Assembly (NCBI GenBank): GCA_014905635.1
Contig: JABVCE010000017.1
Span: 434,001 to 498,000 of the forward strand
Length of the DNA: 64,000 nt
Direction: 5' to 3'
DNA from: Scenedesmus sp. PABB004
Taxonomy: Eukaryota
Of this stretch, positions 20,277-60,400 are shown piece by piece; position 1 is the stretch's first letter, and each line of letters starts with the position of its first letter. A model generated the notes under the pieces. The model was not told the DNA's origin and searched no databases. It was given only the letters and a program-made list of their open reading frames with translations. The position numbers and the translations under genes were made by a program.

Positions 20277-23200
20277 TCACCTGCGCCGGGCCTCGTCCGG
20301 GATGACCTCCACAGTCGCCGGCACCGGCTCCGGCTCGGCGCCCGCGGGCTGGCCCGCCGCGGCGCCGGCGCCGGCGCCGGCGCCGTGCAGCGCGGCCAGG
20401 TCGAGCCCGCCCACCGCCGGCTTGCCGCCGGCGACCGCGACGTTGAGCGTCGGGAGCTGCGGCTTGGGCAGCGACACGTCGGGGACCTGGACGGTCGGGA
20501 TCATGACCGTCGGCAGCGCGACGTCCGGGATCTGGAGCTTGGGCAGCTCCACCGCCGGCAGGCTCGGCAGCGTCAGGTCCGGCAGCTTGGGCAGGCTCGG
20601 CAGCTGCGCCTCGGCGCCCTTGGTCGGCAGCGTCGGCAGCGTGAGGTTGAACCGCACAATGGGCAGCTTGGGCATCTGCGGCGGCGTGTGCGCAAATCAG
20701 GCGGCGGGTCAGGGCGCCGCGCCGCGGGCACGGGCGGGCGCGCAGCTGCACCGCCAGCGCCAGCAGTGCGCCACTGCAAGCAACGCGCCAGTGCACAGCA
20801 ACGCGCCGCAGTGCCAGCTAGCTGTGCGCGCCTGCAGGGGCTTGAAGGCGAAGGGGTTGGGCAGGTCGATGTCGGGGACCGTGAAATTCAGCTTGGGCAT
20901 GGAGAACTTCTTAAACTCCGGCACACGCAGCTCTGCGGCGCGCGAGGCGATTGCAGTCGGTCAGCCGGTCAGCCGGCGCGGGCGGGCGCGCCTGCAGGCC
21001 GTGCCGCCGCAGCGCGGGGAGGCGCGGCCGGTGCCGCCCCGGCCGCCGCCCCGCGCGCGCGGCTGCCGCGCTCCCGCCCTGCCTTCCCTCCCTGCGCTCA
21101 CCCGGGAAGTTCACGACGAGGTTGGGGAACTGGGGGATCTTGGGCAGCAGCGCGCCGACGAGGTTGGTGAGGTCGGGCAGCTGCAGCGGGGGCGGCTTGG
21201 TCACGTCGAGGGAGGGCAGCTCGAAGCGGATCTGCGGGCGCGGGCGGCGCGGCGCAGGGGGCTCCGCGCGTGGGACGCGGCGGCCGCGTGGCCGCCGAGG
21301 CCGCGGCACACACACTCGCCCCGGCGCCGCCCCGGCTGTCCGCGCGCGCGCCCCGCCTGAACCCCGCCTGAGCCTAAACCCACCTGGGGCAGCAGGTCTG
21401 TGACGATGCCGACCAGGTCCTGCGGGGAGAGCGGGTGCGCCGTGGGCAGCACCGCCTCGATCGCGGGCTTGAGCATGGTGGTGATGTTGGCGAGGTAGCC
21501 GGCGCACTGGCGGTACGACGGGCGTTGTTTTGGGTGTTTGAGAAGCGGCGGGGGACGGGGCGGGCGGCGTCAGGGGGCAGGGAGAGCGGGCGGGCGCGGC
21601 GCAGCGCGCTCAGCGCTCAGCACAGCGCGGCGCGCGCGCCTGCTCAAAGGTGGGCAGGTCGGGCAGCGTGAGTGCGGGCTTGTTGAAGTCAATGTCAAAC
21701 GAGATGTGCGGCAGCGCGATGGCCGGCACCAGGCCTAGTGTGGGCGGCGCGCGGCGGCGGCGGTGCAGGGCAAGGCGGGGGTCATGGCTCACCCACGGCC
21801 GTCAGCCCGCGCCCGCCCGCCGCTTCGCGCCGTGGCCGCGGGGCGCCGTCCGCGCTGCGCCGCCGTCCGCGCTGCGCCGCCGTCCGCGCTGCCTGGCCGT
21901 GCAGCGCAGCGCGCGCGGCGTCCGCCCCGCGCCGCACCCGCGAGCGCGGGGAGGTCGATCGGCTTCGGCTTCATAAGCGACGTGATGTTTGCGAGCAGCG
22001 CCATGGGGATGTGGAGGTCGGGGAGCGACACGTTGAGCCCGGGCAGCGCCGGCAGCAGCGCGCAGAGCGGGCCGTGGCACGCGTCGCCGTTGGCGCTGCC
22101 GTTGGCGCCGCCCTTGCCGGACAGCAGGCCGGCGAAGAGGCCGAGCTTGGAGCCCAGGAGGTGGGACTTGAGGTCAAAGCTCGGCAGCGCGGGCAGCACG
22201 GGGCTCGGGCCCGGCCCGCCGTCGCAGTCGCAGACCGTCCACAGGCCGCTCACATACTCCCCGCTCGCGCTCGGCAGGCCGGGCTTGGTGAGCGGGAGGT
22301 GCAGCGGGCCGGGCAGGTTGACGGTCTCCAGGCACGGCATGCCTGGTGGACGGGCGGCGCGGCGGGACGGCGGGCGGGACGGCGCGGGCGGCGGAGCGCG
22401 TGACCAGGCGGTGGCGTGCGGCGTGGCCAGGCGGCGGCGGAGCGCGGCGGCGTGGCGGCGGCGCGTCGTCGCATCGTCGCGTCGCGGCGGCCCGCACCGA
22501 GGTACTGCTTTGCCTGGTCGTCGACGTCGTCGCCGGCCGCGACGACGGTGCCGACGCAGTTCCCGCCGAGGAGGTGGCTCTTGCACCCGGGCACGGCGAG
22601 CTTGCACGCGAGGTCGCGGCACTTGTTGAGCAGACCAAAGGGCCCGTCGTTCTTGGCGTAGCAGATGAAGTCGAGGGCCATGACATCAGAGCCGAGGCCG
22701 TTGAGCTTGCAGAGCGGCAGCTTGCACTTGCCGCTGCTCACGCAGCACCCGCCGGCGCACTCGGGCGCGGTGAACGGCGCCACGACAGGGCAGAAGCCCC
22801 GCGCGCCCTCGGCCGCGTCGGCGCTGCACATCGACGGCGCGGCGGGGCACGCCGCGGGCGGCGGCGGCGCGACCGGCGCGGCGGGCGCGGGCGCGGCCGG
22901 CGCCTCGGGCTCGTCGGGCTTGGGCACGGGCTCCGCCGGCGGCGCGACGGTCGGGCAGTCCTCCATGGCCCAGACCATGCGGAAGTTCTGCAGGCCCGCC
23001 TGCACCTGCGCGCCGACGCCAGCCCGGGCGGCGGCAGGGGGGGGGGGGCGTCGGCGGCGTGTCGGCTGCAGGGCGGCGCGCGCTGCTCCCTCTCCCCGTC
23101 CCCCGCGCGCTCCACCCGGCCGGCCACGCCCGGCGCCCGCCTTCGCTCCCCGCTGGCTCCGGGCCGGGCCGCCGCGACCTTGAGCCCTTAAACCTCAGTA

Positions 23201-24219
23201 CCCCTAAACCCCGCCGCACCTGCTGGCCGTCGACGGTCGTGAGGTCGTGCTCGCCCTTGAATGCGGCAAACCAGGAGCCCTTCGGCGCGATGACCGTCGC
23301 GCCCTCGGACGTGGACTTGGCGTTTCCAAAGACGAGCGTGTTGCCCTTGCTGGTGGTGAGCTTGACGAACTCGACGCACCTGCCGGCCGGGCCGGGCCGG
23401 GTCGGCGGGCGGCGTGTCGGCGGCGGGCGGCGGCGCCGCAGCTGCGGGGCCGGCGGCCGAGGCCGCGCCGCGATGCGCGAGCGCGCGAGGAAGGGAGGGG
23501 CGGGGGGCGGGGGGCCTCTCACTTGTTGGGCGCCTGGCGCACGTCGACGCGGATGAGGTGCTCGCCCTCGGTGAGGGCCAGGTCCTGGGTGTAGAGGTTC
23601 TTGGTGTGACCGAGCAGCGCGGTCGCGCCGCCGCCGTCGCCGGCGCCGTACGTTGCGCGGATGCCCTGCAGGCAGCCGAAGTTCCAGGAATAGAAGAGCT
23701 CCACCTTGGTGAGCCAGCCGTTGGCCTGCCAGACCTCAGTCTGGTCGACCTGGGCCATGGGCTTGGTCTCGCCGACGATGCCAAACGGACCCGTCTCGCC
23801 CACCACCACATCCGTGCATCCATCGCGCCAGGCTGCGAGTCGCGCGCGGGGGCGTGTCAGGTGCGCGATCGCGCCGCGCGGGGGCGGGCGGGGCGCGGGG
23901 GCGGGCGGGGAGGCGGCAGCAGTACGGAGCGGATGGCCGGCCGGCGAATTCTCCCCGGCTGCTCAGCGCCCTGCGCTGCGGCGCGGCCTGACGCCACAAC
24001 TTGCGCTGCTTCGACACAATCGCACGCCAGCTGCAAGCTGATCGCCCCCTCGCGCCCGCGCGCCTCGGCTGCGCTTGCGAGCTGGCCGCGTGTCGCCCTC
24101 TGCGCCCCGCACTGGCCGCGCCAGCCAGTGCTGTTGATGGGCAACGATCACTGGCGCTCACCTGCCGCGCAGCCGGCGAGTAGCAGCACCAGGGCCGCGC
24201 TGGCGAGCGCCCTCGCCAT
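20277..24219 (-). CDS. Secreted protein: jacalin-like lectin domain, Pro-rich linker, Cys-rich region, LPxLx repeat tail (multi-exon)
   Basis: Signal peptide MARALASAALVLLLAGCAA; beta-prism-like motifs LQGIRATYG, LTEGEHLIRVDV, VEFVKLTTSKGNTLVFG, FAAFKG; many Cys; tail LPSLPKLPDLTLPSLPAVELPKLQIPDV. The last TGA overlaps a possible AG|GTGAG donor, so the 3' end is uncertain. Confidence 0.7.
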
Positions 24220-24739
24220 CGCGCCTGCCCCCTGTCGAGATAGGCGCACAGCAAGGGCGGCGCTGTGTTCTGAGAGCACCTGAACGGCGCAGCGAGCACA
24301 CCGTGAGCCAGGCGCGGGCCAAGGGGTGCCTGGCGGGGCAAACCAACTCAACGAACGAGCGAGGTCAAAAGGCCCGCACCTGCTGGGCACGCGTGTGGGC
24401 TGGCAGGTGGTCGGTTGGTTGCGGACGAGGTCGATCGCGAGCTGGGTGTGGCTGCGGCGGAGCGGGGGCGCACCGTTAAGCGAGGCCACGCGGAGTGACA
24501 CTGAGCTCGAGGAAACTGCTGGCCGGCTGGGGACGGCCGCGCCTGTTCACACAGCGCCCGGCACGGCGCGCCCACGCACAATCGCGCGCGCATCGCATCG
24601 CGCCGGGCGGCGCCCTGCGGCGGGCGGCGAGCCGAGCTGCGGCCGCGAGTCGGCGCTGGTCCCGCCGTCCCGCGCGCGCCGCCGCGCAGGCCCGTGCTGG
24701 GCGTGCTGGCATGCGCATGGGTTGAGGGGGAGCTCATCA

Positions 24740-28009: not shown

Positions 28010-28040
<31 letters not shown>

Positions 28041-28741: not shown

Positions 28742-28774
<33 letters not shown>

Positions 28775-31700: not shown

Positions 31701-33088
31701 CGCAGCGGTGGCGGCGGCGGCGGCAGCAGGCGCCACGCCCGGGGCGCCAGCGGCGCCGCGGCCACCGCCGCCGCCGCCGCCGCTGCCGGGGCAGCCACCG
31801 GCAGCGCCGCGGCCACCGCCGCCGCCCCCGCCGCTGCCGGGGCAGCCACCAGCAGCGCCGCGGCCGCCGCCGCCGCCGCCGCCGCTACCAGGGCAGCCAG
31901 CGGCAGCGCCGCGGCCGCCGCCGCCGCCGCCACCGCTGCCAGGGCAGCCCGGGCCGCGGCCGCCGCCTCCGCCGCCGCCGCTGCCGGGTGAGTTGTGCTG
32001 CTGCTGGGGTGCGCTGCGGCTGCCTGGTGCTCGTGTCCGCTGCACTCACTCTCTGCCTGCCGCGCAGGCGCGCCGCGGCCGCCGCCGCCGCTTCCGGGCG
32101 CGCCGCGGCCGCCGCCGCCGCTTCCGGGCGCGCCGCGGCCGCCGCCGCCGCTTCCGGGCGCGCCGCGGCCGCCGCCGCCGCTTCCGGGCGCGCCGCGGCC
32201 GCCGCCGCCGCTTCCGGGCGCGCCGCGGCCGCCGCCGCCGCTTCCGGGCGCGCCGCGGCCGCCGCCGCCGCTGCCGGGCGCGCCGCGGCCGCCGCCGCCG
32301 CTTCCGGGCGGGCCGCGGCCGCCGCCGCCGCTCCCAGGTGGGGCCGGCGCCGCGCGGCCGGCGCGCCCGCCCGCCCCCTGCGCACCCCGCGACCGCCCGC
32401 GCCCGCCCGCGCCCGCCCGCGCGCAGGCGGCCCGCGCCCGCCGCCGCCGCCCGGCGGGCCGCGCCCGCCCGGCTACCGGCCGCCGTATGGCGCCGGCTTC
32501 GGGTCCATCCATGGCACGCCGCAGTACGGCGCCGCCGTCGCGGTGCCGGCGCCCAAGCGCAAGGCGCGGCGGCGCCGCCTGCGCGCGCCCGCCGCGCCGC
32601 GCGGCCCTCCCTCCCTCTCTCTCTCCTTTTCTCTCTTTTGCGTCTCATTGACTCCACACCACCACCAAACCCTAAAACCCTGCCCCGCCGCCCGTGCCCA
32701 AAACCCTGTTCAACCGAAACCCTTTGCCCCCCCCCCAAAACCCTCCCCCCGCGCCACAGACCAAGAGCCTCTTCTGGGACAAGATCCCCGATGCCCGGCT
32801 GCCGGGGTCGCTGTGGGAGGGCTTTGCCGCGGCCGACTGGCTCGACTTTGACGCGCTCGAGGAGGCGTTCCAGCAGGTGCGCACTGCGTTGCTTTGTGTG
32901 TCACTGTTGTTGTCATTTCGTGTTTTTAGGGTCAAGGACGTTGCGTCGCGCCGCGGCTGCACCCCGCCGCCGCCGACCCGCCCGCCGGCCGGCCGCGGCC
33001 CGTCCCTGCTCGCCCCGTGCCGCCGCGTGCAGGTCGTGCGCACCAAGGCGGCCGACCGGGGGCCGTCCGCGGCGCCCAAGCAGGCGCG

Positions 33089-33120
<32 letters not shown>

Positions 33121-36100
33121 CCGCCGCGCCCGCACCTCTGCGCCTCCTCACACGCCCGTCCCGCTCCCCTCACTCTCACTCTCACTCCCTCGCCCCGCCC
33201 AGGTCACGCTGCTCGACCTCAAGCGCTGCACCGCGATCGGCATCCGCATGGCGCGGCTCAAGGCGCGTGCCCTAAGCCCTAAACCGCGCCGCCGCCGCGC
33301 CGCCGCCGCCGCCGCCGCCCCCACGCGTCGCTTACGCCTCAACCCCCGCGCCGCTGCCGCGCGCGCCAGGTGCCGTGGCCCGAGGTCGGCGCAGCGATCC
33401 TCTCGCTCGACGGCGCCGCGCTCGGCAGCGCGGAGGACGTGGCGACGGTCGTGCAGTGCCTGCCCACGCCCGACGAGCGCACCACGCTCGAGGTGACAGC
33501 GCGCGCGCGCGCGCGCTGCGGGGCGCTGCTGCGGCCGCCGCCGGCCCGCGGCCTCTCTCCAACCACACTGGCGCGATGCCCACGGGAACCCTAACTAAGC
33601 CCTTCCGCGCCCCGCCCCGCCCCGCCGCACCCGCGCCGCCTGCGGCAGGCGTACGCCGCGTCGGGGCGGCCGCCCGAGGCGCTGAGCGAGGCGGAGCGGT
33701 TTGCCATGTCCCTCATGGCCGTCCCCGCGCCGCGCCGCGCCTGCGCGCGGTCGGGCAGCGCTTCGCCGCGGCCGAGCGGGCGGCCGAGGCGGCGGCCGTG
33801 TTCCAGGCGCGCGGCGCGGCGCGCATCGCAGCGCAGCGCAGCGCAGCGCAGCGCAGCGCAGCGCAGCGCAGCGCAGCGCAGCGCAGCGCAGCGCAGCGCA
33901 GCGCAGCGCAGCGCGCCTGCCCCGCGCCCACCCCCGCGCCTCCGCCCGCGCCGCCGCGCGCGCCGCCGCGCCGCCGCAGGCGCACATCGCCGCGTGCAAG
34001 GAGCTGCGCGGCAGCGGCACGCTGCGCGCGCTCCTCGCGGCGACGCTCGCGGCGGGCAACTTTCTGAACCACGGCTCCCGCCTCGGCAACGCGCCGGGGT
34101 TTAGGCTCAAGGGGCTCAACAAGCTCCACGACAGCCGCTCCCTGGACGGCAAGTCGACCATGCTCCAGGTGCGCGCGGGCGCCGCGGGGCTGCGTGGGGC
34201 TGCGTGGGGCTGCGTGTCGTGTGTGCGTGCGGCCGCGTGCGGGGAAGCTAGCGGCGCCTCGGGCACCCAACCGCCGCCCGCCGCGCGCCGCGCGCGCGCC
34301 GCGGCGCCCCAGGCGCTCGCGCGGCAGCTGCTCGAGCGCGGCGGCGACGGCGTGGCGGTGCTCGCGGAGGAGCTGCCGCACGTGGCGAGCCCCAAGCTCA
34401 AGATCAGCTGGCAGGAGGCGGCCGACATGCTCACGGCGGTGCGCCGCGCCGCCAGCCGGGTCGCGCCGCGCCGCCAGCCGCGCGTGCAGCGCGGGCGCGG
34501 CGCGCGCTGCGGGTCCGGGCGCCGCGCACGCACGCGCGAGCTGCGGCTGCCGACGCCGCCGACGTGCCGCGCGCCGCGGCGCAGGTTGAGGCGGCGGCGG
34601 CCTCGATCGCCGGCGAGCTGGAGCAGGCGGAGGACGGCGTGAAGCTGGTGCTGACGGTTCAGAAGCCCCAGCCGCCCGGCGGCGACGGCGGGCGCAGCCC
34701 CGCGCGGCCGGGCAGCGCCGGCGGCGGCCGCGGCCCGCCCGCGCGCGCGGGCGGCGGCGCCGGCGGCGCCGGCAGCCGCGCGGCGAGCCCCGCGCGCGGC
34801 GCCGGCAGCGACGACGGGTCCGCGGCGCCGCCCGCCGGCGCGCCCGCCGGCGCCGGCGACGCGGCCGGCGCCAGCGAGGCGGCCGCCGGCGGTGGCGAGG
34901 CCGGCGGTGAGGCGGGGGGCTGCGGCGCCGCGCCGCTGGTGGCCGTGCGCATCGTGGTGGACAACTTTCAGCCCGTCATGGCCAAGGTGGGTTTAGGGTT
35001 TTGAATCACCGTTTGAATCGCATTTGAACGCCGTTTGAATCGCTGCTGCCTGCACCGGGCGCCGCACGGCCTGCGCCGCGGCCCGCACGTTGCGGCTCCC
35101 GAGCCCTGCGCCGCGCTGCGTGCCGCGCCGCGCCGCCCCGCGCGCCGCGCCGCAGGTGCTGTCCAGCATCAAGGGCCGGCAGGCGGAGCTCGACCTGCTG
35201 CGCGACCGCGCCGCGTCGGCGTGGGAGGGGCTGCTGCGGCACTTTGGCGAGACGCGGCAGTCGTGCCCGGCCGACACCGAGTTCTGGGCAGACATCTCGG
35301 TGAGCCCTTGCGGTTCAAAGACGCTGGACCTGCGGTTCAAAACCCAAGGGTGCACGCCTTGGGTTTTGCGGCTTTGTTGACCTGTGGGTGTTTCGCCAAA
35401 CCCCGCCGCTGCGCCCCGCCGCTGCGCGTTGCCCGTCTGTCGCCGCAGCTCTTCGTCGAGCGCTTCAGCGCCGCGCAGAAGGCGGTCCTGCAGGAGGACC
35501 GCGACGCCGCGGAGCGCAAGCAGCGCCTCGCGCGCGCCGAGGCCAAGAAGGCCGCCGCCGAGGCCGCCAAGAAGGCGCGTGGGCGGGGGTTGGGGCAGCA
35601 TGCGGGCCCGCGCGCAGAGGCGGAGGCGGCAGAGGCAGGCTCACGCCCGCTGCCGCCGCCGCGCCGCCCACCATGCTCTGCAGGCCTCGGCGCTCGCGGC
35701 GAGCGGCAGCCGCAAGCGCCTCGCGGGGCTGTCGGACGCGGCGCTGCAGCAGCAGGGCAGCGCCGGCAGCGGCGGCGGCACGCCCGACCACTCGGGCGAC
35801 GGCAGCGCCGCGACCCCCGGCGGCCCGCTGCTCGGCAATGGCCTCATGGCCCTTGCGCAGCAGCGCGTCGCGAGCAGCGCCAGCCAGCCGCCCGCCGGCG
35901 CCGGCGCGGGCGCCGCCTCGCCCGTGACGCCGCCGGGGCCGCGCCGCCCCGGGCCTGCGTCGCCGGCGGCCGCCGCGCCGCCGGACGGGCGGCAGCAGCA
36001 GCAGCAGCAGCAGGGCTCGCCGGCGGGCTTTGGCAGCCCCGTCACGCCGGTCGGCCCGGGGCAGCAGCAGCAGCAGCAGCGCGCGCCGCCGCCGCCGCCG

Positions 36101-40411: not shown

Positions 40412-43175
40412 TCACCCCGCCTCGCGCGCCGCCGCCGCCGCACCCGCCGCCACGCCCGCGGCCAGCGCGCGGCACACCGGCTTGTGCGCGCGCCACGCGG
40501 CCGCCTGGCAGGCGCGGCTGCAGAAGAATGCGGGCGCGGCCGACTTGACGCAGCCCGCGCACGCGCACGCCGGGCCGCGCACCGCCGCCAGCTTGCTGTG
40601 CGCGCCTGCCAGCGCGACGCAGCGCGGGTTGTTGCAGCACGCGCGCAGCGGCAGCGCGGCGCAGACCGCGGCGCACAGCTCCTCCGCCTGCGCGGCCAGC
40701 GCGGGGCCGCGCTCCTGCAGCGTGCTGGCGCGGGCGGCTGCATTGGCCTGGGCGTCGTCGTCCAGCTGCACGGCCAGCTCTGCCGCCGCCGTGTGCAGCT
40801 GCTCCTGCTGCGCCAGCAGGCGCTCCAGCCCCGCGCGCGAGGGGTCCGCCGGCAGCGGCCCCAGCGCGCGCAGGCGCGCGCCCAGCAGCGCAGCTGCGTC
40901 GCCCAGGGCAGCCGGCATGGAGGGCGCCGATACCAGCGGCAGCAGCTCGCCAGACCCGCCGCCGGCAGCTGGCGCGCCCGCATCCGCCGCCGGATCCGCC
41001 GCCAGCGCCTCGCTGAGCAGCTGCGCCAGCACCGCCAGGCCGCGCGCCGCCAGCACCGCCCACAGCGCGGGCGGCTCGTATGCGAGCTGGCCGCCGGTGG
41101 CTGCGACGGCTGCCGGCTGCGCGTGCGCCACTGCGTCGCCGATGGCGCAGCCGGCGCGCACCGCAGCCAGGCAACCGCTCGCGAGGTCCCGCAGCTGCTG
41201 AAGCGGGTCGGCCTCGGCTGCTCCCCCCCCCCCCCACGCCAACCGTCATGCACTTGAGGGCCGTGAGCAGGCAGGCGAACACCTCGCGCTGCAGCAGCAG
41301 GCCCGCGCCGCCGCCGGTCGCCGTCAGCGCCGGCGCGTCGGCCAGGCTGGGGCTGAGCCACCCGATGGTGCCGCACACCACCTGCGCTGTGTCCAAAGCA
41401 GCCTGGGGGGCGACCCTGCCCGCCCAGCTCCTGGCGGACGCCTCCAGCAGCCGGCACAGGGTGGAGGGGTCCTGCCGCGCAAACGCCGCCAGCGCCGCGT
41501 CGGCTGCGTGGCGGCGGCAGCAGCGTTTGCAGCAGTGGGGGCAGCGTGAGCAAGCGCAGGCTGGGCCAGCGTGCAGCGCCAGCTGCCACAGCCAGCCAGC
41601 CGCCAGGGCGCCTCGCACCCGCCGGTCCGTTGCTCGACAGCAGAAGCGCGCCGCACCGATGCAGGGTGACCTCAGCAGTGGTTGCGTCAACCGGCTGCGC
41701 TTGCGCCCCGCCATGCCCCGCCGCGGCCTGGCCGCTGCCCGCGCTGCTGCCAGTGTCTGCCCCCAGCAGCGCGGCGACGGCGGGCCGGGCGAGCGGCAGG
41801 AACGCGCGCACCACTGCCGCCGCAGCCGCTGCGTCGCCCTCTGTGTCGCCGCCCTGGCGGCCGGGTCGCATGGCGCGCATGATGGTGCAGGTGCACAACA
41901 CGCCAGCAGCCAGCACACGGGGCGACGGCTGCAGCGCCACCAGCTCCAGCGCCGCCTCTGCCGCCGCGGCCGCCAGCTCCGCGGCGCCCGCCGCCGGCAG
42001 GCCGCCGGCGCCGCAGCTGGTCGGTGGCGACACCTCAAACAGCATCGTAACCGCGTGGATGCTCACCTCCACCAGCTGCTCATCGTCCCCACCCTGAGGC
42101 ACCGCCATGGCGTCCAGCCGCAGCGCCCGCAGCAGCGCGGCATGCGCCGCCGGCACGGCGGGCGCGCCAGGGCCGACGCCGCTGCTGCCGACGCCAGCCG
42201 GCCGGCCGTGCTGCGCCTTGTGCCGGTGCGCCGCTCGCAGGGCAAGGTTGGTCAGCAGCAGCTGCTGCATCGACGGGTCCGACAGCTGCGCCCGCTCCAC
42301 CTCGTCGCTCACACGGCCGTGCTGCCGCGCCAGCACCAGGTTATGGTGCTGGCCGCCAGGCTGTGGTGCGTGCCAAACGCAAAGCGCCGTCCACGAGCAT
42401 CTCGTGAGCGGCGCCACTGGCAGCCTCTGCACGCCAGGGGGCGGCGCGGCGCAGCACGGCGAGCGCCAGCCGCGCGACTGGCCGCGCCAGCGTCAGCAGC
42501 GGGCCCTCCAGCTGGCCCTGCAGCGACCAAGCGTCGCTGACAGCGCACGCCGCCCCCAAAAGCGCTAGCACAGTGAGACATCTCACGTTGTAGAGCTCGC
42601 CGCTGTCCTGCTGCCGCCGCCGCCGCCGCTGCTGCTGCGGGGCGCTTGAGGCCTCCAGCGCCGCGGCGAGGGCGGTGCACGCCGCAGCCAGCGGCAGGAG
42701 CAAGCCTGCGGGCGCGCCGCGGACGCGACCAAGTCAGGGATGGGCGAGGCAGCGGCTGGCGAGGACCCCCGCCGCCCAGCCGCCGCTCACCAGCGCGCTC
42801 CACGTCGGCCGCCAGCTCCGCGTCAGGCGCGCCAAGGGCCTTGCGGATTCGGAAGCTCAGCTTAAGCATACAGTACAGGGCATAGAGCGTGTGGGCAAAG
42901 CCCCTGCTGCCCGCCGCCTCCGCCCGCGGCGCCGGCGCCGCCAGCAGCGCCAGCGCGCGGGCCACGCCCTGCGCGACTCGCGCCTGCACGCCGGCGGCCA
43001 GCAGCGCGCTCAGGTCGGCGCAAGGCGAGCCCCTGGCCTCAGCTTCCTCAATGAGGCCGGCAAAATAGGCGTGGAGCGACTCTGCGGCGTCGACCTCCGC
43101 CGCGAGCGCGCCGATGCTGCCCGCGCGCGCGCAGCGGCCCAGCCAGCCCTCCAGGGCCGCGGTCTCGGGCCGCAT
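40412..43175 (-). CDS. MYND zinc-finger family protein, copy M4 (frameshift at a homopolymer near 41230, possibly an assembly error)
   Basis: MRPETAALEGWLGRC start, same exon structure, intact MYND finger; the frame break lies in a C run. Confidence 0.7.
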
Positions 43176-45114: not shown

Positions 45115-45436
45115 TCAGTCCGAGACGGTCTCATACGTGACGGGGAAGAGCCCGACAGCGTTGGCGGGCGACAGGTACGTGAGCGTCGCGCTGAGCTGCT
45201 GCCCGGCGACCGCGTTCCACGTGCGGATGAGCGCCGTGCGCTTCGGCCCCGCCGGCAGCACGGGCAGCGCCCGGCCGGCGAACGCGCGCCAGTCGGCGAC
45301 GGCGTCGCCGTTGTACACGAACAGGGTGCTGCCGGCAAAGTTGGGGAAGGTCGTCGGCGCGCGGCGCGCGCACGTCCCGTTCTCTGCGCATTGGCGCACG
45401 GCGGGCGCGGCGCGGGTGCGGCGCGCGAGTGAGGGT

Positions 45437-45467
<31 letters not shown>

Positions 45468-47684
45468 GGCGGGGCAAGGGAGGGAGGGGGGAGGGGGCGG
45501 CTGCGCGCGGCGTGCGGGTGCGGCGCGGAGGGCGTGCGGCGCGCGCGGTGCGGCGCGGCGTGGCGCGCACTGGTGGACAGTCCCACGACCGCGACCGCCT
45601 TGCCGATCAGGGGGCCGATGTCAACCACGAGCCGCGTCTTCTGGCGCTCCACGCTGTCCTCGGGCGTCTCCCAGAAGTACCTTTGAGGGGGGGCGGCGCG
45701 GGGCGGTGTGGGCGGGGCGTGTGAGGTGTTGCGCCCGGGGCGGGTCGAGGAGGGGCGGCCAGGGAGGGTGGCGCAAGGGGGGCCCCGCAACCGCGGCGGG
45801 GGTGGCGCAAGGGGGGCCCCGCAACCGCCCGAGCCCCTGAGGCTCTGTGTCCCGACCCATCAGCCCCTTAAACCCCGCGCTTGAGCGCGCTCACTGGTAG
45901 TACAGCTTGAGCACCTCGCCCGCGACCGCGGCCACGCTCGGCCTGTTCAACCTCAACACCCTCAAACCCCTAAGCCCCTAAACCCCTTCAACCCTTGAAC
46001 CCCGGCGGGGCGCTCACTGGTAGTACAGCTTGAGCACCTCGCCCGCGACCGCGGCCGCGTCGATGCAGTCGACGGCCGGGTCGGCGCAGGGCGTGATGTC
46101 GGACGCGGGGCCGCTGCGCTTGATGCTGTAATACTTGGCGTAGTCGGCCGACAGCATCAGCCGGATGTGGCCGCAGCCCTGCGCGCGCGGGGAGGGTGGA
46201 GAGGGAGGGGTGGAGAGAGGGGTGGAGAGAGGGGTGGAGAGGGGGAGAGGGGTGGAGAGAGAGGGGCGGAGAGAGGGGTGGAGAGAGGGGTGGAGAAGAG
46301 TCGCGGCGGCGGGCGGGAGGGGGCGGGGGGCGGCCGGCGGGGGCGCGGCGGCGGGGGCAGGCGGCGTGCGCCGCGCGTGCGCGCACCTGGAACTCGCTCT
46401 TCACGAGGAGCTCCAGCCACTTGCCCTTGTCGGCCGGGCTGGGCGGCGCGCTGCGCGGCAGGTGGCGGCGGCGGCGGCGGCGTGCGCATGAGCCTGCGCC
46501 GCGCCGTGCGGCGCCCCGGCCGACCACGCCCCGCACCGGCGCCGCGCGCCGCGCCGCGCCCCGCGCGCGGCGCCCCGGCCGGCCGGCCGCGCCGCGCGCG
46601 CCGGCGCCGCGCGCGCGCGGCGCCGCGCCCCGCGGCGCGCCGCCACGCACGCGAGCGGCGCGATCGCGGGCTTGGGCGTCACGCCCGCCTCGGCCAGCGC
46701 GTTGAAGAGCGAGCGCAGGCGGGTGTCGTCCGTGTGGAAGTAGATGGGGCGGGTCGGCGTCGCGATGGTCGTCATAACAGAGTCAAAGAACGCCTTGACG
46801 TTGGCCGTGGTCACGGGGAGCTTCCTGCGGGGTTTAGGGTGTGGTCGGAGGTTGGTCGGAGGGTGGTTGACGGGGCGGGGCGGGGCGGCGCGAGGGAGCG
46901 CGCGGCGTGAGGGCGCGGGGGCGGCGCGAGATGGCGGCCCTGGAGCCGCCGCGCCCCAGCGCCGCCGCCTGGGCCTCGGCCTCGCCCGAGCGTTCGAGGC
47001 ATGCCACGCGGCGCCGCAACCCTGCGCCCCCAACCCTGACCCCTAAAACCTGCGTGCCAGCGGCGCTGAACCCCGAACCCCTGCGGCGCGCTCACTCAAG
47101 CTTGAGGTAGGCCATGGTGCCCGCGACTACCTCCGCCAGGTCGCCGCCGGGCGTGCCGAGCTCGGGCGACGTGCCGCGCGCGTCGACGCAGGAGAAGGAG
47201 TTGCGCACCGAGTTGCGCAGCCCGGGCGTGGGCTGCGCGGCGCGGCGGCGCGGGGACGTGGGCGGCGGGGTGGGCGGGGGCGGGGGCGGGGACGCGCGGC
47301 GGCGGCGCGGGGGCGCCGCGCGGCGCGCTCCCGGGCGCGCGGCGCACCTGCTCGCCGAAGTGGGTCTCCACCTGGGGCACCTGCGCGGCGGGCGCGGGGG
47401 CGCGGCGGCGCGGGTGCGTGTGCGGGGGCGCGGCGGCACTGCGCGGGTCAGCAGCAGCACCAGTCAGCAGCATGTGGGACACGCCCGACGGCCCGGCGTG
47501 CGGTGGGCGCCTCACTCACCGCGTAAAGCTTGTAAGTGCCATCTGCGTTGAACTCGGGCGTGGGCAGGTTGTTCTGGTTCCCCCCGACCGTGACCTTGCC
47601 CGTGAAGCTGCAGCCGTCGGCGTGGAGCAGCGCGCTGGCCGCCAGGAGCGCCAGCAGGGGCGCGGCGAGGTGGGCGCGGGCCAT
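45115..47684 (-). CDS. Secreted protein with Cys/His/Cys metal-site motifs, carbonic-anhydrase-like (beta/zeta/theta-type ligand pattern)
   Basis: Signal peptide MARAHLAAPLLALLAASALLHADG; spliced motifs FSCVDAR...GTPGGDLAE, IYFHTDD, GCGHIRLML; coherent exons to ...FPVTYETVSD*. The gene itself is clear; the function is inferred. Confidence 0.6.
46192..46300. repeat. Purine-rich (GGAGAGAGGGGT)-like intronic tandem repeat
   Basis: About 8 degenerate 12-bp units. Confidence 0.85.
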
Positions 47685-48524: not shown

Positions 48525-51252
48525 TCAACCCGCGTCGCGCGCCGCCGCCACGCCCGCGGCGAGCGCGCGGCACACCGGTTTGTGCGCGCGCCACGCGGCC
48601 GCCTGGCAGGCGCGGCTGCAGAAAAATGCGGGCGCGGCCGACTTGACGCACCCCCCGCACACGCACGCCGGCCCGCGCACCGCCGCCGGCTCGCTGTGGG
48701 CGCCGGCCAGCGCTGTGCAGCCCGGTTGTTGCTGCACGCGCGCAGCGGCAGCGCGGCGCACACCGCGCCGCACAGCTCCGGCGCCTGCACGGCCAGCACG
48801 GGGCCGCGCTCCTGCAGAATGCTGACGCAGGCGGCTGCGTCGGCCTGGACGTCGTCGTCCAGCTGCGCGGCCAGCTCCTCCGCCGCCGTGCACAGCTGGT
48901 CCTGCTGCGCCAGCAGGCGCTCCAGGACCGTGCGCGAGGGGTCTGCCGGCAGCGCGCCCAGCGCGCGCAGGCGCGGGCCCAGCGGCGCCGCTGTGTTGCT
49001 CAGGGCCGCCAGCACGGCGGCGGCAGCTGCCAGCAGCACCAGCTCACCAGGCTCGCCGCTGACAACTGGCGCGCCCGCACCGACCGCCGGCTGCGCCGCC
49101 AGCGCCTTGCCGAGCAGCTGCGCCAGCACCGCCAGGCCGCGCGCCGCCAGCACCGCCCACAGCGCGGGCGGCTCGTACGCGAGCTGGCCGCCCGCGGCCG
49201 CCGCGGCTGCCGGCTGCGCATGCGCCACAGCGTCACCGATGGCGCAGCCAGCGCGCACCGCCGCCAGGCACCCGCGGCTGCTCAACCCTGTTGGGTGCGG
49301 CTGCCGCCGGCCCCACACCGACTGCCACGCACTTGAGGGCCGTGAGCAGGCAGGCAAACACCTCACGCTGCAGCCGCGGGCCCGCGCCGCCGCCGGTCGC
49401 CGTCAGTGGCGGCGCGGCTGCCAGGCTGGTGCCGAGCCGCCTGATTGCGTCGCACAGCGCGTGGGCTGTGCTCAGGGCGGCGCTGCCCGCCCAGGTCCTG
49501 GCCGATGCCTCCAGCAGCCGGCACAGGGTGGAGGGGTCCTGCCGCGCAAACGCCGCCACGACCGCGTCGGCTGCGGCGGCGACGGGAGCAGTGGCGGCGG
49601 CGGCGGCGGCAGCGGCGTGAGCAAGCGCAGACACGCTGAGCCAGCGCGGCAGCTGTCAAAGCGATATGTTGTCAATGTGCCGCACACCCGCAGGTCCGCC
49701 GCTCCACAACAGCAGGTAGCCGCAGCGCAGCAGGGCGTGCTTAGCAGTTGCTGCGTTGACCGGCTGCGCTTGGGCCCCGCCGTGCCCCGCCGCCGCCGGC
49801 CCGTTGCCCGTGCTGCTGCCAGCGTCTGCCCCCAGCAGCTCGGCGACGGCGGGCCGGGCGAGCGGCAGGAACGCGCGCACCACTGCCGCCACCGCCGCGT
49901 CGCCCTCTGTGTCACCACCCTGGCGGCCGGGTCGCACGGCGCGCAGGGCGACGCTGGCGCACGCCGTGCCTGCAGCCAGCAGGCGCGGCGCCGGCTGCAG
50001 CGCCACCAGCCCCAGCGCCGCCTCTGCCGCTGCGACCGCCAGCTCCGCGGCGCCCGCCGCCGGCAGGCCGCCGCCGGCGCCGCAGCTGGCCGGGGGTGAC
50101 ACATCAAACAGCGCCGTAACCGCGCTGATGCTGTACTCCACCAGCTCCTCATTGTCCAGACCTTGTGGCACTGCGATGGCGTCCAGCGCCAGCACGCGCA
50201 GCAGCGCGGCGTGCGCCGCCGGCACGGCGGGCGCGCCAGTGCCGGCGCCGCTGCTGCCGCCACCTGCGCTGGTCGGCCGACCGCGCTGCGCCTCGTGGAC
50301 GTGCGCCGCGCGCAGGGCGAGGTCGGCCAGCAGCAGCTGCTGCACCGCGGGGTCTGCCAGCAGCGCACGCTCCGCCTCATCGCTCACGCAGCCATGCTGC
50401 CGGGCTGCCAACAGGCTCTGAGCCGTCCACCAGGCTGTCGCGTGAGCCGAAACCAGCGCAGTCTGCATGGAGCGGGCCGCGGACAGCGCGCGCTGCACCA
50501 GGCTTGCGCCTGCAGGGCTGCTGCCGGCAGCCGCCGCACGCCAGGCACCGGCGCAGCGCAGCACCGCGAGCGCCAGGCGCGCGACCGGCTGCGCCAGCGG
50601 CAGCAGCGGGCCCTCCAGCTGGCCCTCCGACGGCCAGGCGCTGTGGGTAGCACGGGCCGCCAGCAGTGGCGCTGCCGCAACCAGGCACGCAGGGAGCGGA
50701 GGAGCGCAGGTGCCCTCCTGCTGCGGGGCCTCCAGTGCCGCGGCGACGCCGGCGCACGCCACGACCAGCGGCGGAAGCATGCCTGCGGGCGGGCGGAGGC
50801 GGCGGCCCGGTCAGGGACGGGCGAGGCAGCGGCAGGCGCGGACCGCCGTCGGCCTGCCGCCGCTCACCCGCGCGCTCCAGCTCGGCCGCCAGCTCCGCCT
50901 CGGGCGCGCCAAAGACCTTGCGGATGCCAAAGCTCGCCTGCAGCATGTCGCACAGAGCATGAACCGTGCGGGCACAGCCCCCGCTGCCCGCCGCCGCCGC
51001 CCGCGTCGCCGGCGCCGCCAGCAGCGCCAGCGCGCACGCCACGGCCTGCGCGAGCCGCGCCTGCACGCCGGCGGCCAGCAGCGCGGCCAGGTCGGCGCAG
51101 GGCGAGCCCCTGGCCTTTGCGCTGTCAAGAATGTCGGCGAAATAGTCCATCAGTGACTCCGCGGCCGCGCCTTCCGCCGCGAGCGCGTCGACGCTGCTCG
51201 CGCGCGCGCAGCGGCCCAGCCAGCCCGCCAGGGCCGCCGTCTCGGGCCGCAT
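48525..51252 (-). pseudogene. MYND family copy M5, disrupted
   Basis: Full 3-exon layout, but with a 14-nt deletion near 49275 (between GCGGG microhomologies) and the same 1-nt frameshift at NN|R (near 48722) as M3b. Confidence 0.7.
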
Positions 51253-51901: not shown

Positions 51902-54630
51902 TCACTCCGCCTCGCGCGCTGCCGCCGCCGCCGCCGCCACACCCGCGGCCAGCGCGCGGAACACCGGCTCGTGCGCGCGCCACGCAGCCTTTTGGCAGGC
52001 GCGGCTGCAAAAGCGCGCAGGCGTGGCCGACTTGCCGCAGCCCGCGCACGCGCACGCCGGGCCGCGCACCGCCGCCAGCTCGCTGTGCGCGCCTGCCAGC
52101 GCGACGCAGCGCGGGTTGTTGCAGCACGCGCGCAGCGGCAGCGCGGCGCACACGGCGGCGCACAGCTCCTCCGCCTGCGCGGCCAGCGCGGGGCCGCGCT
52201 CCTGCAGCGTGCTGACGCGGGCGGCTGCGCCGGCCTGGGCGTCGTCGCCCAGCTGCGCGGCCAGCTCCGCCGCCGCCGTGTGCAGCTGCTCCTGCTGCGC
52301 CAGCAGGCGCTCCAGCCCCGCGCGCGAGGGGTCCGCCGGCAGCGGCCCCAGCGCGCGCAGGCGCGGGGTCAGCAGCGCCGCCGCGTCGTGCAGGGCCGCT
52401 AGCACGGCGACGGCAGTTGCCAGCCGCGCAGGCTCGCCAGGCCCGCCACCACCAGCTGGTGCAACAGACGCCGGCCAAGCCGCCAGCGCCTTGCTGAACA
52501 GCTGCGCCAGCACCGTCAAGCTGCGCGCCGTCAGCACCGCCCACAGCGCGGGCGACTCGTACGCGAGCTGGCCGCCGGCGGCCGCCGCGGCTGCCGGCTG
52601 CGCGCGCACCACCGCGTCGCCGATGGCGCAGCCGGCGCGCACCACCGCCAGGCAGCCGCTCGCCAGGTCCCATAACTGCTCATCGCGGCCAGGGCCGGCT
52701 GCTGCCGGCCCCACACCGACCGCCGCGCACTTCAGCGTGGTGAGCAGGCAGGCAAACACCTCGCGCTGCAGCCGCAGGCCCGCGGCGCCGCCGGCCGCCG
52801 TCAGCGCCGGCGCGGCTGCCAGGCTGGGCCCGAGCCGCCCAATGGAGCCGCGCAGTGCGTGTGCTGTGTCCAGAGCGACCTGCGCCATCTCCCTGCCCGC
52901 CAAGCTCCTTTCGGACGCCTCCAGCAGCCGGCACAGGGTGTAGGGGTCCTGCCGCACGAACGCCTCCAGCGCCGCGTCGGCTGCGGCGGTGGCGGCGGCG
53001 GCGGTGAGGGCGTGCGCAAGCCCAGGCAGGCCGGGCCGGCGGGCTGCGTAGCTGCCCAAAGCCAGCTGCCGCCACACACCCTGCGCTCTGTTGCTCCCCT
53101 CACACAGCAGCAGACCGCAGCTCTGTAGGGCGCCGTGAGCAGTGGCTGCGTCGACCGGCGGCGCTTGCGCCCCGCCCTGCCCCGCCGCCGCCGGCCTGGT
53201 CCCTGTGCTGCTGCCGGCGTCCGCCCCCATCAGCGCGGCGGCGGTGGGCCGGGCGAGCGGCAGGAACGCGCACACCACCGCCGCCGCCGCGTCGTCACCG
53301 TGCGCCGCACCGCCCGGGGCTGCTTCCCTCAGGTGGTGCATGATGCTGCCGGCGCACGAAGCGCCAGCAGCCAGCGCGAGGGGCGTCGGCTGCAGCGCCA
53401 CCAGCTCCAGCGCCGCCTCCGCGACCGCGGCCGCCAGCCCCGCACCGCCCGCTGTGGTCGGGCCAGCGCTGCCACTGCCGGCGATGCCAGCTCCGCAGCT
53501 GGTCGGCGGTGAGACCTCAAACAGCATGCCGACCGCATGGACGCTGTCCTCCAGCAGCATCTCTCTCTGCTCTACGCGGGGCACCGCAGCGGCGTCCAGC
53601 CCCAGCACGCGTAGCAGCGCGGCGTGCGCCGCCGGCACGGCGGGCGCGCCAGGGCCGGCGCCGCTGCCGCTGCCAACGGCCGGCCGCGCTGCGCCTTGTG
53701 CAGGTGCGCCGCGTGCAGGGCGAGGTTGGCCAGCAGCAGCTGCTGCACCGCGGGATCCGCCAGCAGCGCACGCTCCGCCCTTCCGCTCACGCGGCGATAC
53801 CGCCGCGCCAGCAGCACGCTCTGAGCCGTCCCCTGTGCTGTGACGCGGGATAACGACAGCACGTCCTCCACCAAGTCCGACGGTATCAAGCCGCCACCGG
53901 CCTGTGCGCGCCAGGCCCCGGCGCGGCGCAGCGCCGCGAGCGCCAGCCGCACGTCGTGCTGCGCCAGCGCCAGCAGCGGGCCCTCCAGCTGGGCCTGTGC
54001 CGGCCACGCGATGTGCGCAGTGCGTGCCACCACCAGCAGCGCTGCTGCTGTGAGGCACTCCAGTTGAGACTGCGCGCCGCTGGCCTGCCGCTGGCGCTGC
54101 TGCGAGGCCTCCAGCGTCGCGGCGTGAGCGGTGCACGCCGCGGCCAGCGGCGGCAGCATGCCTGCGGGTGCGCAGCGGCGGCGGCCCGGTCAGGGACGGG
54201 CGCAGCAGCTGCAGGCGCGGACCGCCGCCCGCCGCTCACCCGCGCGCTCCAGCTCGGCCGCCAGCTCCGCGTCGGGCGCGCCAAAGGTCTTGCGGATGAA
54301 ACAGCTGCTCTGCAGCAGGGGGCACAGGGCAAAGAGCGTGCCGACAAAGTCCGCGCTGCCCGCCGCCGCCGCCCGCGTCGCCGGCGCCGCCAGCAGCGAC
54401 AGCGCGCACGCCACGGCCTGCGCGAGCCGCCGCTGCACGCTCGCGGCCAGCAGCGCGCCCAGGTCGGCGCAGGGCGAGCCCCTGGCCCCTGCCTGTTGAA
54501 TCAGGCCGCCAAGATAGGTGCGCAGCGAATCCGCGGCGGCGCCCTCCGCCTCCGCCGCGAGCGCGCCGACGCTGCTCGCGCGTGCGCAGCGGCCCAGCAG
54601 GCCCGCCAGGGCCGCGGTCTCGGGCCGCAT
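51902..54630 (-). CDS. MYND zinc-finger family protein, copy M6 (one frame break near 53680)
   Basis: MRPETAALAGLLGRC start; the finger ends HEPVF instead of HKPVC (last Zn ligand lost), so it may be degenerating. Confidence 0.6.
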
Positions 54631-57446: not shown

Positions 57447-60400
57447 ATGCTCAACCAGGGCCTCGACCCGCAGGGCCTGCGCTATGCCGCGGCCGGCACG
57501 CAGTACCAGCACGCCCAACAGAGCTTCCAGGCCCTGGGTGCGGCGCCGCCGCGGCGCGCGGCGCCCCGCACCGGCGACCGGCAGCGGCGGCGCTGCTGTT
57601 GGCGCGCGCGCGGGCAGCGCGGGCGCACGGCGCGCGGCCGGGGGCGCCGCTGACGCGCCGGCCGCCGCCGCCGCCGCCGCCACCGCAGGCGGCCTGCAGC
57701 AGGGTCTGCAGGGCCTCGGCGGCGCCGGCAGGTGCGCGCGCGCTGCGGCGGGGCGCCGTCCCCGTGGGCGCGCGCGCGCCCACGCGCCCACGCGCCCGCG
57801 CGCCGCCTCCGCCGCCGCCGCCGCGCCGTCCCCTACCGCAGGATGGGCCTTGCAGGCTTCCCAAACACCTCGACGGCGCCGCAGGCGGGCCAGTTCCACG
57901 GCGGCGGCCTCGGCGCGGCCGGCGCGGCGGGGCTGGCGGCGCAGCAGGGCGCGTTGCGATTCATGGGCCCCGGCGTGCCGCTCGGCGGCGGGCAGCTCGC
58001 GGGGCAGTTTCCCGGCGTCGGCCTGAGCGCGGCCGCGCAGCGGCAGGGCCTGGGGCAGGGCCTCGGGCAGGGCATCGGGCAGGCGCAGGGCCTCGGGCTC
58101 GGGCTCGGCGGCGCGGTGCGCGGCGGCGCGACGCCGCAGCAGGCGGCGGCGGCCAGCCTGCTGATGCAGCGGCAGCAGCAGCAGCAGCAGCAGCAGTTTG
58201 GGGCGGCGCAGCAGTTTGCGGGCGGGCTCGGCGGCCTCGCCGGCAACCCGCTGCAGCAGCTGAACGCCGCGCAGCAGCGGCTCGCGCTGCAGCAGCAGCA
58301 GCAGCAGCAGCAGGCCGCCGCGGCGGCGGCGGCGGCGCCGCAGCAGCAGCAGAACGACCTGCTCGCCCTGCTCGCGAGCAGCAAGGGCGGCGCCGGCGGG
58401 CACGGCTTTGGCCAGGCCATGGGCGGCCTTGGCGGCCTCGGCGGCGGGGGCCCCGGCGGCATGGCGGGGCCGCACGGGCTCTTCGGCGGCCGCCCCGGCG
58501 GCTTTGCCGGCGCCGCGGCGGCGGGCCTCGGCGGCGGCGGCGGCGGCGGCTTTGGCCAGCCGCTGGGCGGCGTCGACGGGCTCGGCGGGCTCGGCGGCGC
58601 CGGCCAGCAGCAGCAGGGCGGCGGCGGCGGCGGCCCAGGGTTCAGCCAGGACGAGTTCCCGGCCCTCGGCGCGGCGGCGCAGGCCGCCGCGGCGGCGCGC
58701 GGCGCGGCGGCGGCGCAGCAGGCGGCCGCCGCGGCCGCCGCGCAGGCGCAGGCCGCGGCCGGCGGCGGGCCGCGCTCGGGCGGAGACTACTCGGCTGCCG
58801 CGATGGCGCTGCGCAAGGCCGCGGGCGTCGGGCAGCAGGTGAGGGCGCGCGCGTGCGGGGCAGAAGGGGGGAGCAGGCCGTCACGCCTCGCCAGCACTCG
58901 CGCCGCGCCGCCCGCGCGCCAACGCCCGCCGCGACCGCCGCGGCGGTGCTGCGCAGGAGTTTTCGATCCAGAACGACAGCGACTTCCCAGCCCTCGGCGG
59001 CGGCCCGCCGCAGGGCGGCGGCGGCGGCGACGACAAGGGCGGCGCGGTGCGCCGCCGCACGCGCGCCCGCGCGGCGCCCCCGCCCCCGCCCCCGCCCCCC
59101 CCCCCCCCCCCCCCCCCCGGCGCGCGGCGCGCACGGCCGCCGCGACACGCGCCGGGGGTCCCTGACGCCGCGCTGCCCGCGCCGCGCCCGTTCAGGACAA
59201 GGACCGGCCCGGCGGCGGCGCCGACGGCGGCGGCGGCGCGGGCGGCGGCCTGCTCCCCGGCGGCGGCGGCATGGCGGGCGGCGCGGCCGCGGGCGCCGAC
59301 AGGTGCGCGCCGCACCACCGCCGCGCCGCGCCGCGCCGCGCCGCCACGCCCCTCCCCCTGTCTCGCGCCGCTGGCTTGCGCCCTGCTGCCGCTGCACCCC
59401 AGCTCCCGCTCAACCCTGCTCCGCCCGCCCCTAAAACCTAAACCCTAAACCCTGAAACCGCCCCAGGTACGGCCTGCTGGGGCTGCTGCACGTCATCCGC
59501 ATGACAGAGCCCGACCTCACGATGCTCGCGCTCGGCACCGACCTCACCGGCCTCGGACTCAACCTCAACGCGCCCGACTCGCTCTACAAGGCGCGCCTTG
59601 TGCGGCACTGCGCGCCGGCTGCTGTTTTGACCGTTGGTTTGACTGTTGCTTGAGCGCTTTCAAGCGTCGCCCGTGATTTGTGCACGGCTGCGCGGACGCC
59701 GCGCCCGCGCCGCCCGGGGGCGGGCCTCGCACGCGCGCGCGCCGCCGCCGCGCCCGCCCGTACCCCGCCAGGTGCTCGTGTCGCCGCTCGCCGACGCGCC
59801 GGTGCGGCCCGACCTCGACTTTGAGGTCCCCGCGTGCTACAAGCACAGCCCGCCGCGCCTGCAGCCGGGGTACCTCGCCAAGTTCAAGGAGGAGACGCTC
59901 TTCTACATCTTCTACTCCATGCCCCAGGTGCGTTAATGACGTGTTAATGACACGTTATTTGACTGTCACTCCTGACTGCTTTGACTTTTGATCTGTGTGG
60001 AGTGATCCAGGCCGACGGGACCGCGACCCGCCCCCGCCCGCGCGCCCGCGCTCGCGCTCGCAGGACGAGGCGCAGCTGATCGCGGCCGACGAGCTCTGCG
60101 CGCGCGGGTGGTGGTGGCACAAGCGCTTCCGCTGCTGGTTCATCCACGCGCCCAACAGCCCCGTCGTCAAGAGCGCCGCCGCGCGCAGCGAGCGCGGGAC
60201 GTACCTGTTCTTCGACACCTCCATCTGGGACGTCGTGCAGGTGGGCGGCCGCTACTCTAGTTTAGGGTTTAGGGTTTAAACCTAAACCCGCCTCCCGCCC
60301 GCGGGCCGCGCGAGCGGCGGCCGTTCAGGGTTTGTCACCAGGGTCCCTGCAAGGGCTTTGTGGGCGGTGCCGCTGCCGATCGCCCGGCCTCCTCGCGAGC

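Follow-up and report, generated by a model that had tools for sequence, protein, structure and literature searches.

Short tracts of telomere-type sequence, TTTAGGG (G-type) or its complement CCCTAAA (C-type), are strongly enriched in a 64,000-nucleotide stretch of the genome of the alga Scenedesmus sp. PABB004 (contig JABVCE010000017.1, positions 434,001 to 498,000 of the forward strand; hereafter the window, numbered from its first letter). They lie in introns of four genes: one codes for a formin, one is a CNOT2 homologue, and the other two are of unknown function. Beyond enrichment and intronic location, the observations reported here are a compositional skew of the introns that mostly accounts for tract orientation, two loci that resemble repair scars, and the age of one intron. 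We propose, tentatively and at somewhat less than even probability, that the tracts are short interstitial telomeric repeats left by break repair in spliceosomal introns that already existed. All results come from this one window.

Enrichment of telomere-type sequence

The enrichment is real and strongly non-random. Dinucleotide shuffles predict 0.26 exact TTTAGGG motifs over both strands; the window holds 12, a number that none of 100 shuffles reaches. With up to one mismatch, the count is 56 against 18.4 expected. The letters of the motif can be ordered in 140 ways, among which the telomeric registers are joint top (12, with a mean of 2.1); among all 2240 heptamers containing four A/T they stand directly behind (AC)n. 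The base composition of 102 tract-free introns would yield only about 0.14 exact motifs, an over-representation of about 90-fold that holds in the right and the wrong orientation alike. The fourth letter of the motif is also far from arbitrary: TTTAGGG occurs 12 times, TTTTGGG 6, TTTGGGG 4, and TTTCGGG once. A and T each make up 8-9% of intron bases, yet A is favored at this position.

Wrap-around alignment to (TTTAGGG)n found 10 tracts scoring at least 20, compared with 0-2 (mean 0.75) in a control of 20 shuffles of 50-nt blocks. Perfect TTTAGGG units are present at 10 separate loci. The tracts comprise one to seven units and are mostly decayed; the units are often degenerate, with periods of 7-9 nt. 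An earlier reading of the letters alone (the sequence-only reading) had placed telomere-type sequence at a series of coordinates in the window, and every one of them carries it.

Confinement to introns

GC content is 74-84% throughout the 64 kb, which is densely occupied by intron-rich eukaryotic genes. Because open reading frames (ORFs) stay open in all frames at such GC, we built our own two-strand gene finder, a hidden Markov model (HMM) with codon, splice-site, and intron states on both strands, trained on the window itself. Its output comprises 12 gene blocks, with 36.2 kb of exon, 122 introns totaling 19.2 kb, and 8.6 kb of intergenic DNA; predicted donors follow the consensus GTG[C/A]G[C/G], and acceptors read CAG.

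All 12 exact motifs fall in HMM introns, as do all 13-14 degenerate tracts listed in the sequence-only reading, whose statement that the tracts occur solely in introns of four genes is borne out by these models for this window. For 133 non-telomeric orderings of the same letters, 49 of 221 occurrences are intronic (Fisher P=4e-8 versus the telomeric motif). Introns are 83% GC, exons 77%, and intergenic DNA 76%; confinement is not compositional, since introns are GC-richer than exons. Composition was accordingly rejected as the cause, introns being the most GC-rich compartment and the control orderings mostly exonic or intergenic. After curation, a tract is found in 11 of 118 introns, all within four gene blocks, and tract-bearing introns are longer (median 169 versus 123 nt, P=0.005).

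Absence from exons would be expected for any telomeric insertion, by analogy with human interstitial telomeric sequences (ITS): none of those described in PMC7215372 is exonic, and insertion would, according to that account, add stop codons whichever way round it lay.

The tracts and the introns that carry them are as follows.

21372..21383, minus strand: G-type tract directly at the donor (GTGGGTTTAGG...), in predicted intron 21232-21383 of a gene of unknown function at 20277-23758
23177..23219, minus strand: degenerate G-type tract from 8 nt past the donor, in intron 23006-23219
32661..32750, plus strand: degenerate C-type tract ending 10 nt short of the acceptor, in the formin intron that ends at 32759
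32925..32931, plus strand: lone G-type unit, 46 nt into formin intron 32877-33032
33270..33285, plus strand: two C-type units, 7 nt past a probable GC donor, in formin intron 33263-33369 (a polarity exception)
33589..33600, plus strand: AACCCTAAC-like C-type unit, within formin intron 33493-33648 (3' half)
34987..35001, plus strand: G-type tract at donor GTGGGTTTAGGGTTTT, in formin intron 34987-35155
45681..46017, minus strand: 337-nt intron of the gene at 45-47 kb, with a 76-nt degenerate G-type tract (45934-46009) and an additional G-type unit (45865-45872)
46825..47095, minus strand: 271-nt intron of the gene at 45-47 kb, with G-type tracts at 47018-47085, 15-77 nt from the donor, plus a C-type unit at 46829-46840, 6 nt before the acceptor
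59429..59465, plus strand: best-preserved tract (score 51), C-type, in CNOT2 intron 59303-59466, with its end 2 nt short of the acceptor
60258..60300, plus strand: head-to-head junction of G-type and C-type units, 18-60 nt into the last CNOT2 intron, 60241-60468

Orientation and intron skew

Read in transcript sense, the 5' half of the intron holds all eight G-type tracts and the 3' half four of the six C-type tracts, so that 12 of 14 have the G-type in the donor half or the C-type in the acceptor half. The sequence-only reading had described such a polarity with a single exception. The orientation bias is real, and the exceptions are two: the units at 33270-33285, which follow a probable GC donor, and the C-arm of a palindrome at 60277-60300.

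Most of this orientation rule is secondary to a general skew of the introns. Over all introns, the first tenth has G 0.48, C 0.32, T 0.12, and A 0.08, and the last tenth C 0.48, G 0.33, A 0.13, and T 0.06. Under shuffling in 25-nt blocks, exact motifs are expected at a right-to-wrong ratio of 3.6:1 (observed 10:2), and motifs with one mismatch at 3.1:1 (observed 28:9). With the 102 tract-free introns as the null, the expected ratio is 2.5:1, from which neither the loci (12 of 14, P=0.19) nor the exact motifs (10 of 12, P=0.28) depart significantly. Orientation calls for no rule of its own: the observed polarity does not significantly exceed the one predicted by the skew of tract-free introns. 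The sequence-only reading had itself named intron skew as a potential full explanation of the polarity; skew essentially accounts for orientation, though not fully for closeness to the donor (P=0.005). The motif polarity rests on this steady gradient, in which sequence rich in G/T past the donor gives way to sequence rich in C/A ahead of the acceptor.

Gene models at the tract-bearing loci

Comparison of six-frame ORFs with Pfam identified the formin (Drf_GBD and FH2 domains, plus strand, about 26.7-36.7 kb) and a CNOT2-type gene with a NOT2_3_5_C domain (plus strand, 57.4-60.7 kb), along with a short-chain dehydrogenase, an AAA_18 kinase-like gene, and at least six MYND-finger paralogues. Proteins of two transcriptome assemblies, which a paper assigns to Flechtneria rotunda and Enallax costatus, both Scenedesmaceae, match one CNOT2 exon at 92-93% identity. 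For the single gene tested, this CNOT2 exon, the closest named relatives are thus Scenedesmaceae, which places the source of the window among green algae close to this family.

Homology checks cover the models of three of the four tract-bearing genes. The Pfam NOT2_3_5_C profile runs through positions 5-58 and then 59-114 on two consecutive predicted CNOT2 exons, which supports the junction, and transcript-derived CNOT2 relatives join predicted exons. FH2 profile positions 11-51 and 188-246 map to predicted formin exons that flank introns. The exon after the formin intron ending at 32759 opens the FH2 domain, and the in-frame stop at 32673-32675, seen in the ORF list, is supplied by the telomeric motif itself. 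Downstream of CNOT2 intron 59303-59466 lies the exon encoding the conserved YGLLGLL...LNLN segment. For the gene at 45-47 kb, full-length homologues (P0019, P0018, P0030, and P0036) align gap-free across both tract-bearing junctions once 46825-47095 and 45681-46017 are each removed as a single intron. The gene at 20-24 kb, which holds the tract at 21372..21383, is modeled from the HMM and codon periodicity alone.

Homologue searches with the exon and read-through at 23100-23378 of the 20-24 kb gene, and with the formin exon 34585-35001, returned no match. Single exons of both genes of unknown function gave no Pfam family at E up to 5 beyond chance-level matches. The HMM made recognizable errors: it placed a false 18-nt micro-exon (60342-60359) inside the last CNOT2 intron and miscalled the proline repeats of the formin FH1 region as an intron. 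GC donors, assigned to 20 of 122 predicted introns, are probably over-called, and many are likely artifacts of GCGCGC-rich DNA.

In the formin, AAG/GCGCGT at 33263 is the sole in-phase donor that preserves the FH2 reading frame, and a 30-nt unit (GAPRPPPPLP), repeated in tandem about nine times and near-perfectly, encodes the FH1 domain at 32070-32330. The gene at 45115-47684 (minus strand) encodes a secreted-looking protein of about 366 amino acids with the conserved motifs FSCVD.RG..LGTPGGD and QGCGH.RLM; it has 37 representative homologues and falls outside any Pfam family.

Two scar-like loci and the age of the last CNOT2 intron

Repair-type changes in the flanks are seen at two of 13 loci, in the form of 47-nt direct repeats and of a head-to-head junction; the flanks of the remaining 11 loci hold nothing diagnostic of repair. 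A search of 12 tract introns for target-site-like repeats at their junctions likewise gave only ordinary 5-9 nt matches of AG/GT type, save at the locus with the 47-nt repeats.

At that locus, perfect direct repeats at 45887-45933 and 46010-46056 flank the 76-nt tract. Each corresponds to an exon end plus donor, GTGAGCGC, and the second extends into the upstream exon. Because homologues lack the duplicated residues, the 337 nt are most simply read as one enlarged intron. Flank changes, including duplication, are among those described for telomeric insertions at staggered breaks (PMC7215372).

The second locus lies in the last CNOT2 intron, where two perfect G-type units abut C-type units head-to-head (60261-60288). 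Such an arrangement is what one would expect had the two ends of a break gained repeats before being rejoined, and head-to-head stretches are reported among complex insertion loci in horse (PMC7215372). The palindrome at 60261-60288 (dG -15.2, z -2.6) folds at 60265-60289 as a 9-bp hairpin, the only structure that stands out among tract introns, whose folding z ranges from -2.7 to +4.1.

Relatives of CNOT2 bear on the age of this intron. Genomic ORFs of P0001-P0003, P0006, and P0007 all depart from the CNOT2 frame at one and the same codon on either side of exon 60064-60240. P0004, P0005, P0008, P0009, and P0010, in contrast, span the junction and read ...DVVQ/K.DVEVFF; P0004 and P0005 are transcriptome accessions. 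Since five relatives splice there, the last CNOT2 intron is 60241-60468 and the 18-nt exon within it is false. At least five relatives are interrupted at the same codon, which makes the intron older than its tract. Judging from these sequence comparisons, the repeats altered a CNOT2 intron that already existed. The sequence-only reading had offered, as one of two options, that telomerase-assisted repair "builds or remodels" introns here: remodeling fits the two scar-like loci, and building is contradicted for this one intron by its shared position.

Read-through peptides of four relatives, covering the visible part of the same CNOT2 intron, show no telomere-like signature. The read-through of P0006 contains GLGFGW and FGVWFRVWG, encodable by G/T-rich codons only, a soft hint that similar sequence may be present in its intron. 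A metagenome scan with the CNOT2 exon as query found three distant loci only (57-59% identity, 47-63% GC), too remote to serve in a comparison of orthologous introns.

Break repair and its alternatives

How might repair have produced such tracts? A DNA break within an intron would expose a G-run at a 3' end, TTTAGGG-type units would be added by telomerase or by repair synthesis that copies telomere-like DNA, and the ends would then be rejoined, at times with duplication of a flank or a head-to-head junction. Orientation would be set by the strand that offers the G-run, the sense strand in the G/T-rich sequence past the donor and the antisense strand in the C/A-rich sequence before the acceptor. 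Exons would be purged of insertions because arrays of the 7-nt unit bring stop codons. Conjectural in this account are the involvement of telomerase, the way priming would work, and the loss of insertions from exons. TTTAGGG is the telomerase product in three Sphaeropleales covered by PMC3318450, and a model put forward for plant telo boxes has non-processive telomerase adding single units at free 3' ends (PMC3022908). Every donor-side tract in the window starts at the first G-run past the donor, which fits priming on a G-rich 3' end.

Several observations weigh against leaving the matter there. Six of eight G-tracts start within 22 nt of the donor (P=0.005 under the composition null and 7e-5 under a uniform one, with splice-site offsets measured by hand and distance thresholds picked post hoc). 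The 11-mer GTGGGTTTAGG is identical at two unrelated donors; this and the closeness to donors would each suit a functional element. Pure scars would predict tracts between genes, yet none lies in the 8.6 kb called intergenic (0.69^11=0.017), an absence that is weakly informative given how crude the intergenic calls are. Density is high, at about 13 loci in 64 kb, and the tracts cluster without explanation in four of 12 gene blocks (P=0.02). At every locus, moreover, insertion is a deduction, relatives having been compared as proteins only. Finally, the 76-nt tract does not look like a fresh telomerase product, because it is degenerate between identical flanks and cloned products of the telomeric repeat amplification protocol (TRAP) from Sphaeropleales telomerase contained 0% variant repeats in the data given in PMC3318450; its probable source is error-prone synthesis or the copying of DNA that was degenerate beforehand. 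Locally lower GC was considered as a cause of the clustering and found unsupported (P=0.19 for intron GC, P=0.32 for flank GC).

The main rival, itself rather unlikely, is that the tracts, above all those near donors, are functional intronic RNA elements, with UUUAGGG-type G-runs past the 5' splice site and C-rich CCCUAAA-type runs before the 3' splice site bound by hnRNP-like or G-strand-binding RRM proteins. Such elements would define or regulate a subset of introns and would be compatible with an origin by repair. Besides the donor statistics and the 11-mer shared by two donors, the rarer GTGGG donor is found in three tract introns, no words are more enriched at intron ends than telomeric hexamers, and human G- and C-rich intronic enhancers offer a precedent, hnRNP A1/A2/F/H being among the proteins said in PMC2481429 to bind G-runs. 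The G/T-rich codons needed for the P0006 peptides point the same way, although the other four relatives lack a signature in the visible part of the intron. At the acceptor, three of six C-tracts end within 10 nt, a closeness that is non-significant under the composition null (P=0.11). Pairing between 5' and 3' parts is no greater in tract introns than in half-shuffled controls; over 109 introns, intron-wide pairing of G- and C-tracts had a mean z of -0.53 against half-preserving shuffles. The suggestion in the sequence-only reading that telomeric motifs were co-opted as splicing signals fails as a general rule: 107 of 118 introns have no tract, so the tracts are not a general splice signal, and the branch-point-like word enriched near acceptors is CTCAC(G), not CTAA.

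Convergence deserves consideration in a window this rich in short tandem repeats (790 rows in the output of Tandem Repeats Finder). Home-grown minisatellites, in which slippage expands G-run and T-run seeds derived from the skew, could account for the many degenerate units with their 7-9 nt periods, and tract introns do hold other AT-containing tandem units, such as the four GTTTGAATCGC-like copies in 34987-35155. We nevertheless judge this unlikely: the fourth position favors A (12) over the commoner G (4) and C (1), perfect TTTAGGG recurs at 10 separate loci, and slippage does not yield a head-to-head junction. A DNA-level role is very unlikely. Telo-box-type elements, bound by Myb/TRB-like proteins and controlling transcription or chromatin in gene bodies, are suggested by five exact copies of the core AAACCCTA/TAGGGTTT (both strands together) and by the frequency of such boxes in plant genes, given as 155 per Mb in Arabidopsis (PMC3022908). 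Plant boxes, however, favor 5' untranslated regions (UTRs) and the first two introns according to the same source, and a DNA-level site gives no reason for adjacency to splice sites.

The stronger version of the sequence-only reading, in which telomerase-assisted break repair creates new introns, is highly improbable. It could draw on the head-to-head junction, on a GTG triplet at both junctions of intron 34987-35155, and on the 47-nt duplication, which yields a possible extra exon and intron. The position of the last CNOT2 intron is nevertheless common to at least five relatives, and most tracts are a small fraction of the intron in which they lie. Extra residues are also absent from homologues of the 45-47 kb gene, which makes removal of the duplicated piece together with the old intron the simplest view. 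Even less probable, to an extreme degree, is descent from an introner-like mobile element with telomere-like ends. Clustering in four gene blocks and the long direct repeats at one locus would suit such an element, but blastn-short comparison of nine tract regions with the window found only 13-19 nt telomeric cores and GC-rich low-complexity matches. A mobile-element or introner family can largely be rejected within the window, as there is no shared body beyond the telomeric core.

The break-repair reading may also be extended to take in the splice-site statistics. In that quite unlikely case, telomerase or telomere-templated repair would have acted recurrently at G-run-rich intron ends, and the UUUAGGG and CCCUAAA tracts so made would have been kept beside the 5' and 3' splice sites as intron-definition elements. 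Chromosome-end machinery would then feed the splicing code, occasionally enlarging or duplicating exon-intron boundaries, as at the 47-nt locus.

Other repeats and gene families in the window

Some introns contain non-telomeric AT-containing tandem or palindromic units (34987-35060, 59600-59650, 59928-59975, and about 9870-9890). They include the four GTTTGAATCGC-like units of intron 34987-35155, TTAATGAC repeats, and a GTTTGAATTCAAAC palindrome; units in the 5' parts of introns are rich in T, those in the 3' parts in A. ACACACA/TGTGTGT is by a wide margin the commonest heptamer with four A/T, at 67 occurrences, indicative of (AC)n microsatellites such as in the intron at about 56400.

The MYND-finger paralogues (Pfam zf-MYND) are found on both strands at 13927-14011, 17306-17394, 42706-42790, 50783-50867, 54162-54239, and 61531-61700. 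Their introns are near-identical (GTGAGCGGCGG...GCTGCCTCGCCC.TCCCTGA...), and none holds a telomere-type tract. On sequence grounds, the paralogues appear to be a recently amplified local gene family.

Implications

Should the pattern hold genome-wide, telomere-type tracts next to splice sites would number in the thousands in this alga. GC content is too high for such tracts to arise by chance, which would make the genome a clean system in which to ask how frequently internal breaks are repaired with the help of telomerase or telomere-templated synthesis, and whether the resulting scars are recruited as splicing elements. Present evidence comprises strong enrichment in one 64-kb window and a polarity that is mostly a by-product of general intron skew.

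Comparison with known systems

By analogy, the closest kinds are the short ITS inserted by repair in mammals and the telo boxes of plants, and the closest functional analogue is the class of G- and C-run intronic enhancers. Mammalian short ITS attributed to double-strand-break repair, as described in PMC7215372, are likewise short internal runs of telomere units, found in introns but not in exons, with flank duplications and head-to-head arrangements; the same source proposes telomerase priming on G-rich ends in the register of the repeat. The algal tracts are far denser (about 13 loci per 64 kb), consist mostly of one to three decayed units, and adjoin splice sites with a strand bias. For human short ITS, the reported share in introns is 31%, equal to random insertion (PMC7215372).

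Plant telo boxes, as described in PMC3022908, share the AAACCCTA-type unit, the green lineage, and a similar density per Mb. They act in promoters and are enriched in 5' UTRs and first introns. The algal tracts show no such concentration in 5' UTRs, promoters, or first introns; they lie near splice sites, in interior and last introns of all four genes, and their motif is about 90-fold over-represented in a background of about 79% GC.

The G- and C-run enhancers of GC-rich introns discussed in PMC2481429 resemble the algal case in having runs near splice sites of short, GC-rich introns, and the algal introns have the same 5'-G, 3'-C bias. Placement agrees as well, the algal G- and C-runs lying within a few tens of nucleotides of splice sites. 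Enhancers of this class are, in that source, plain GGG or CCC, whereas the algal runs are separated specifically by TTTA and occur in about 9% of introns.

Our literature searches found no paper on splice-site-proximal, strand-polar telomere-type repeats in algal introns, a result that leaves the absence of such a paper unproven. What is distinctive here is the combination of high density, closeness to splice sites, and a strand bias tied to intron skew, all in a very GC-rich background.

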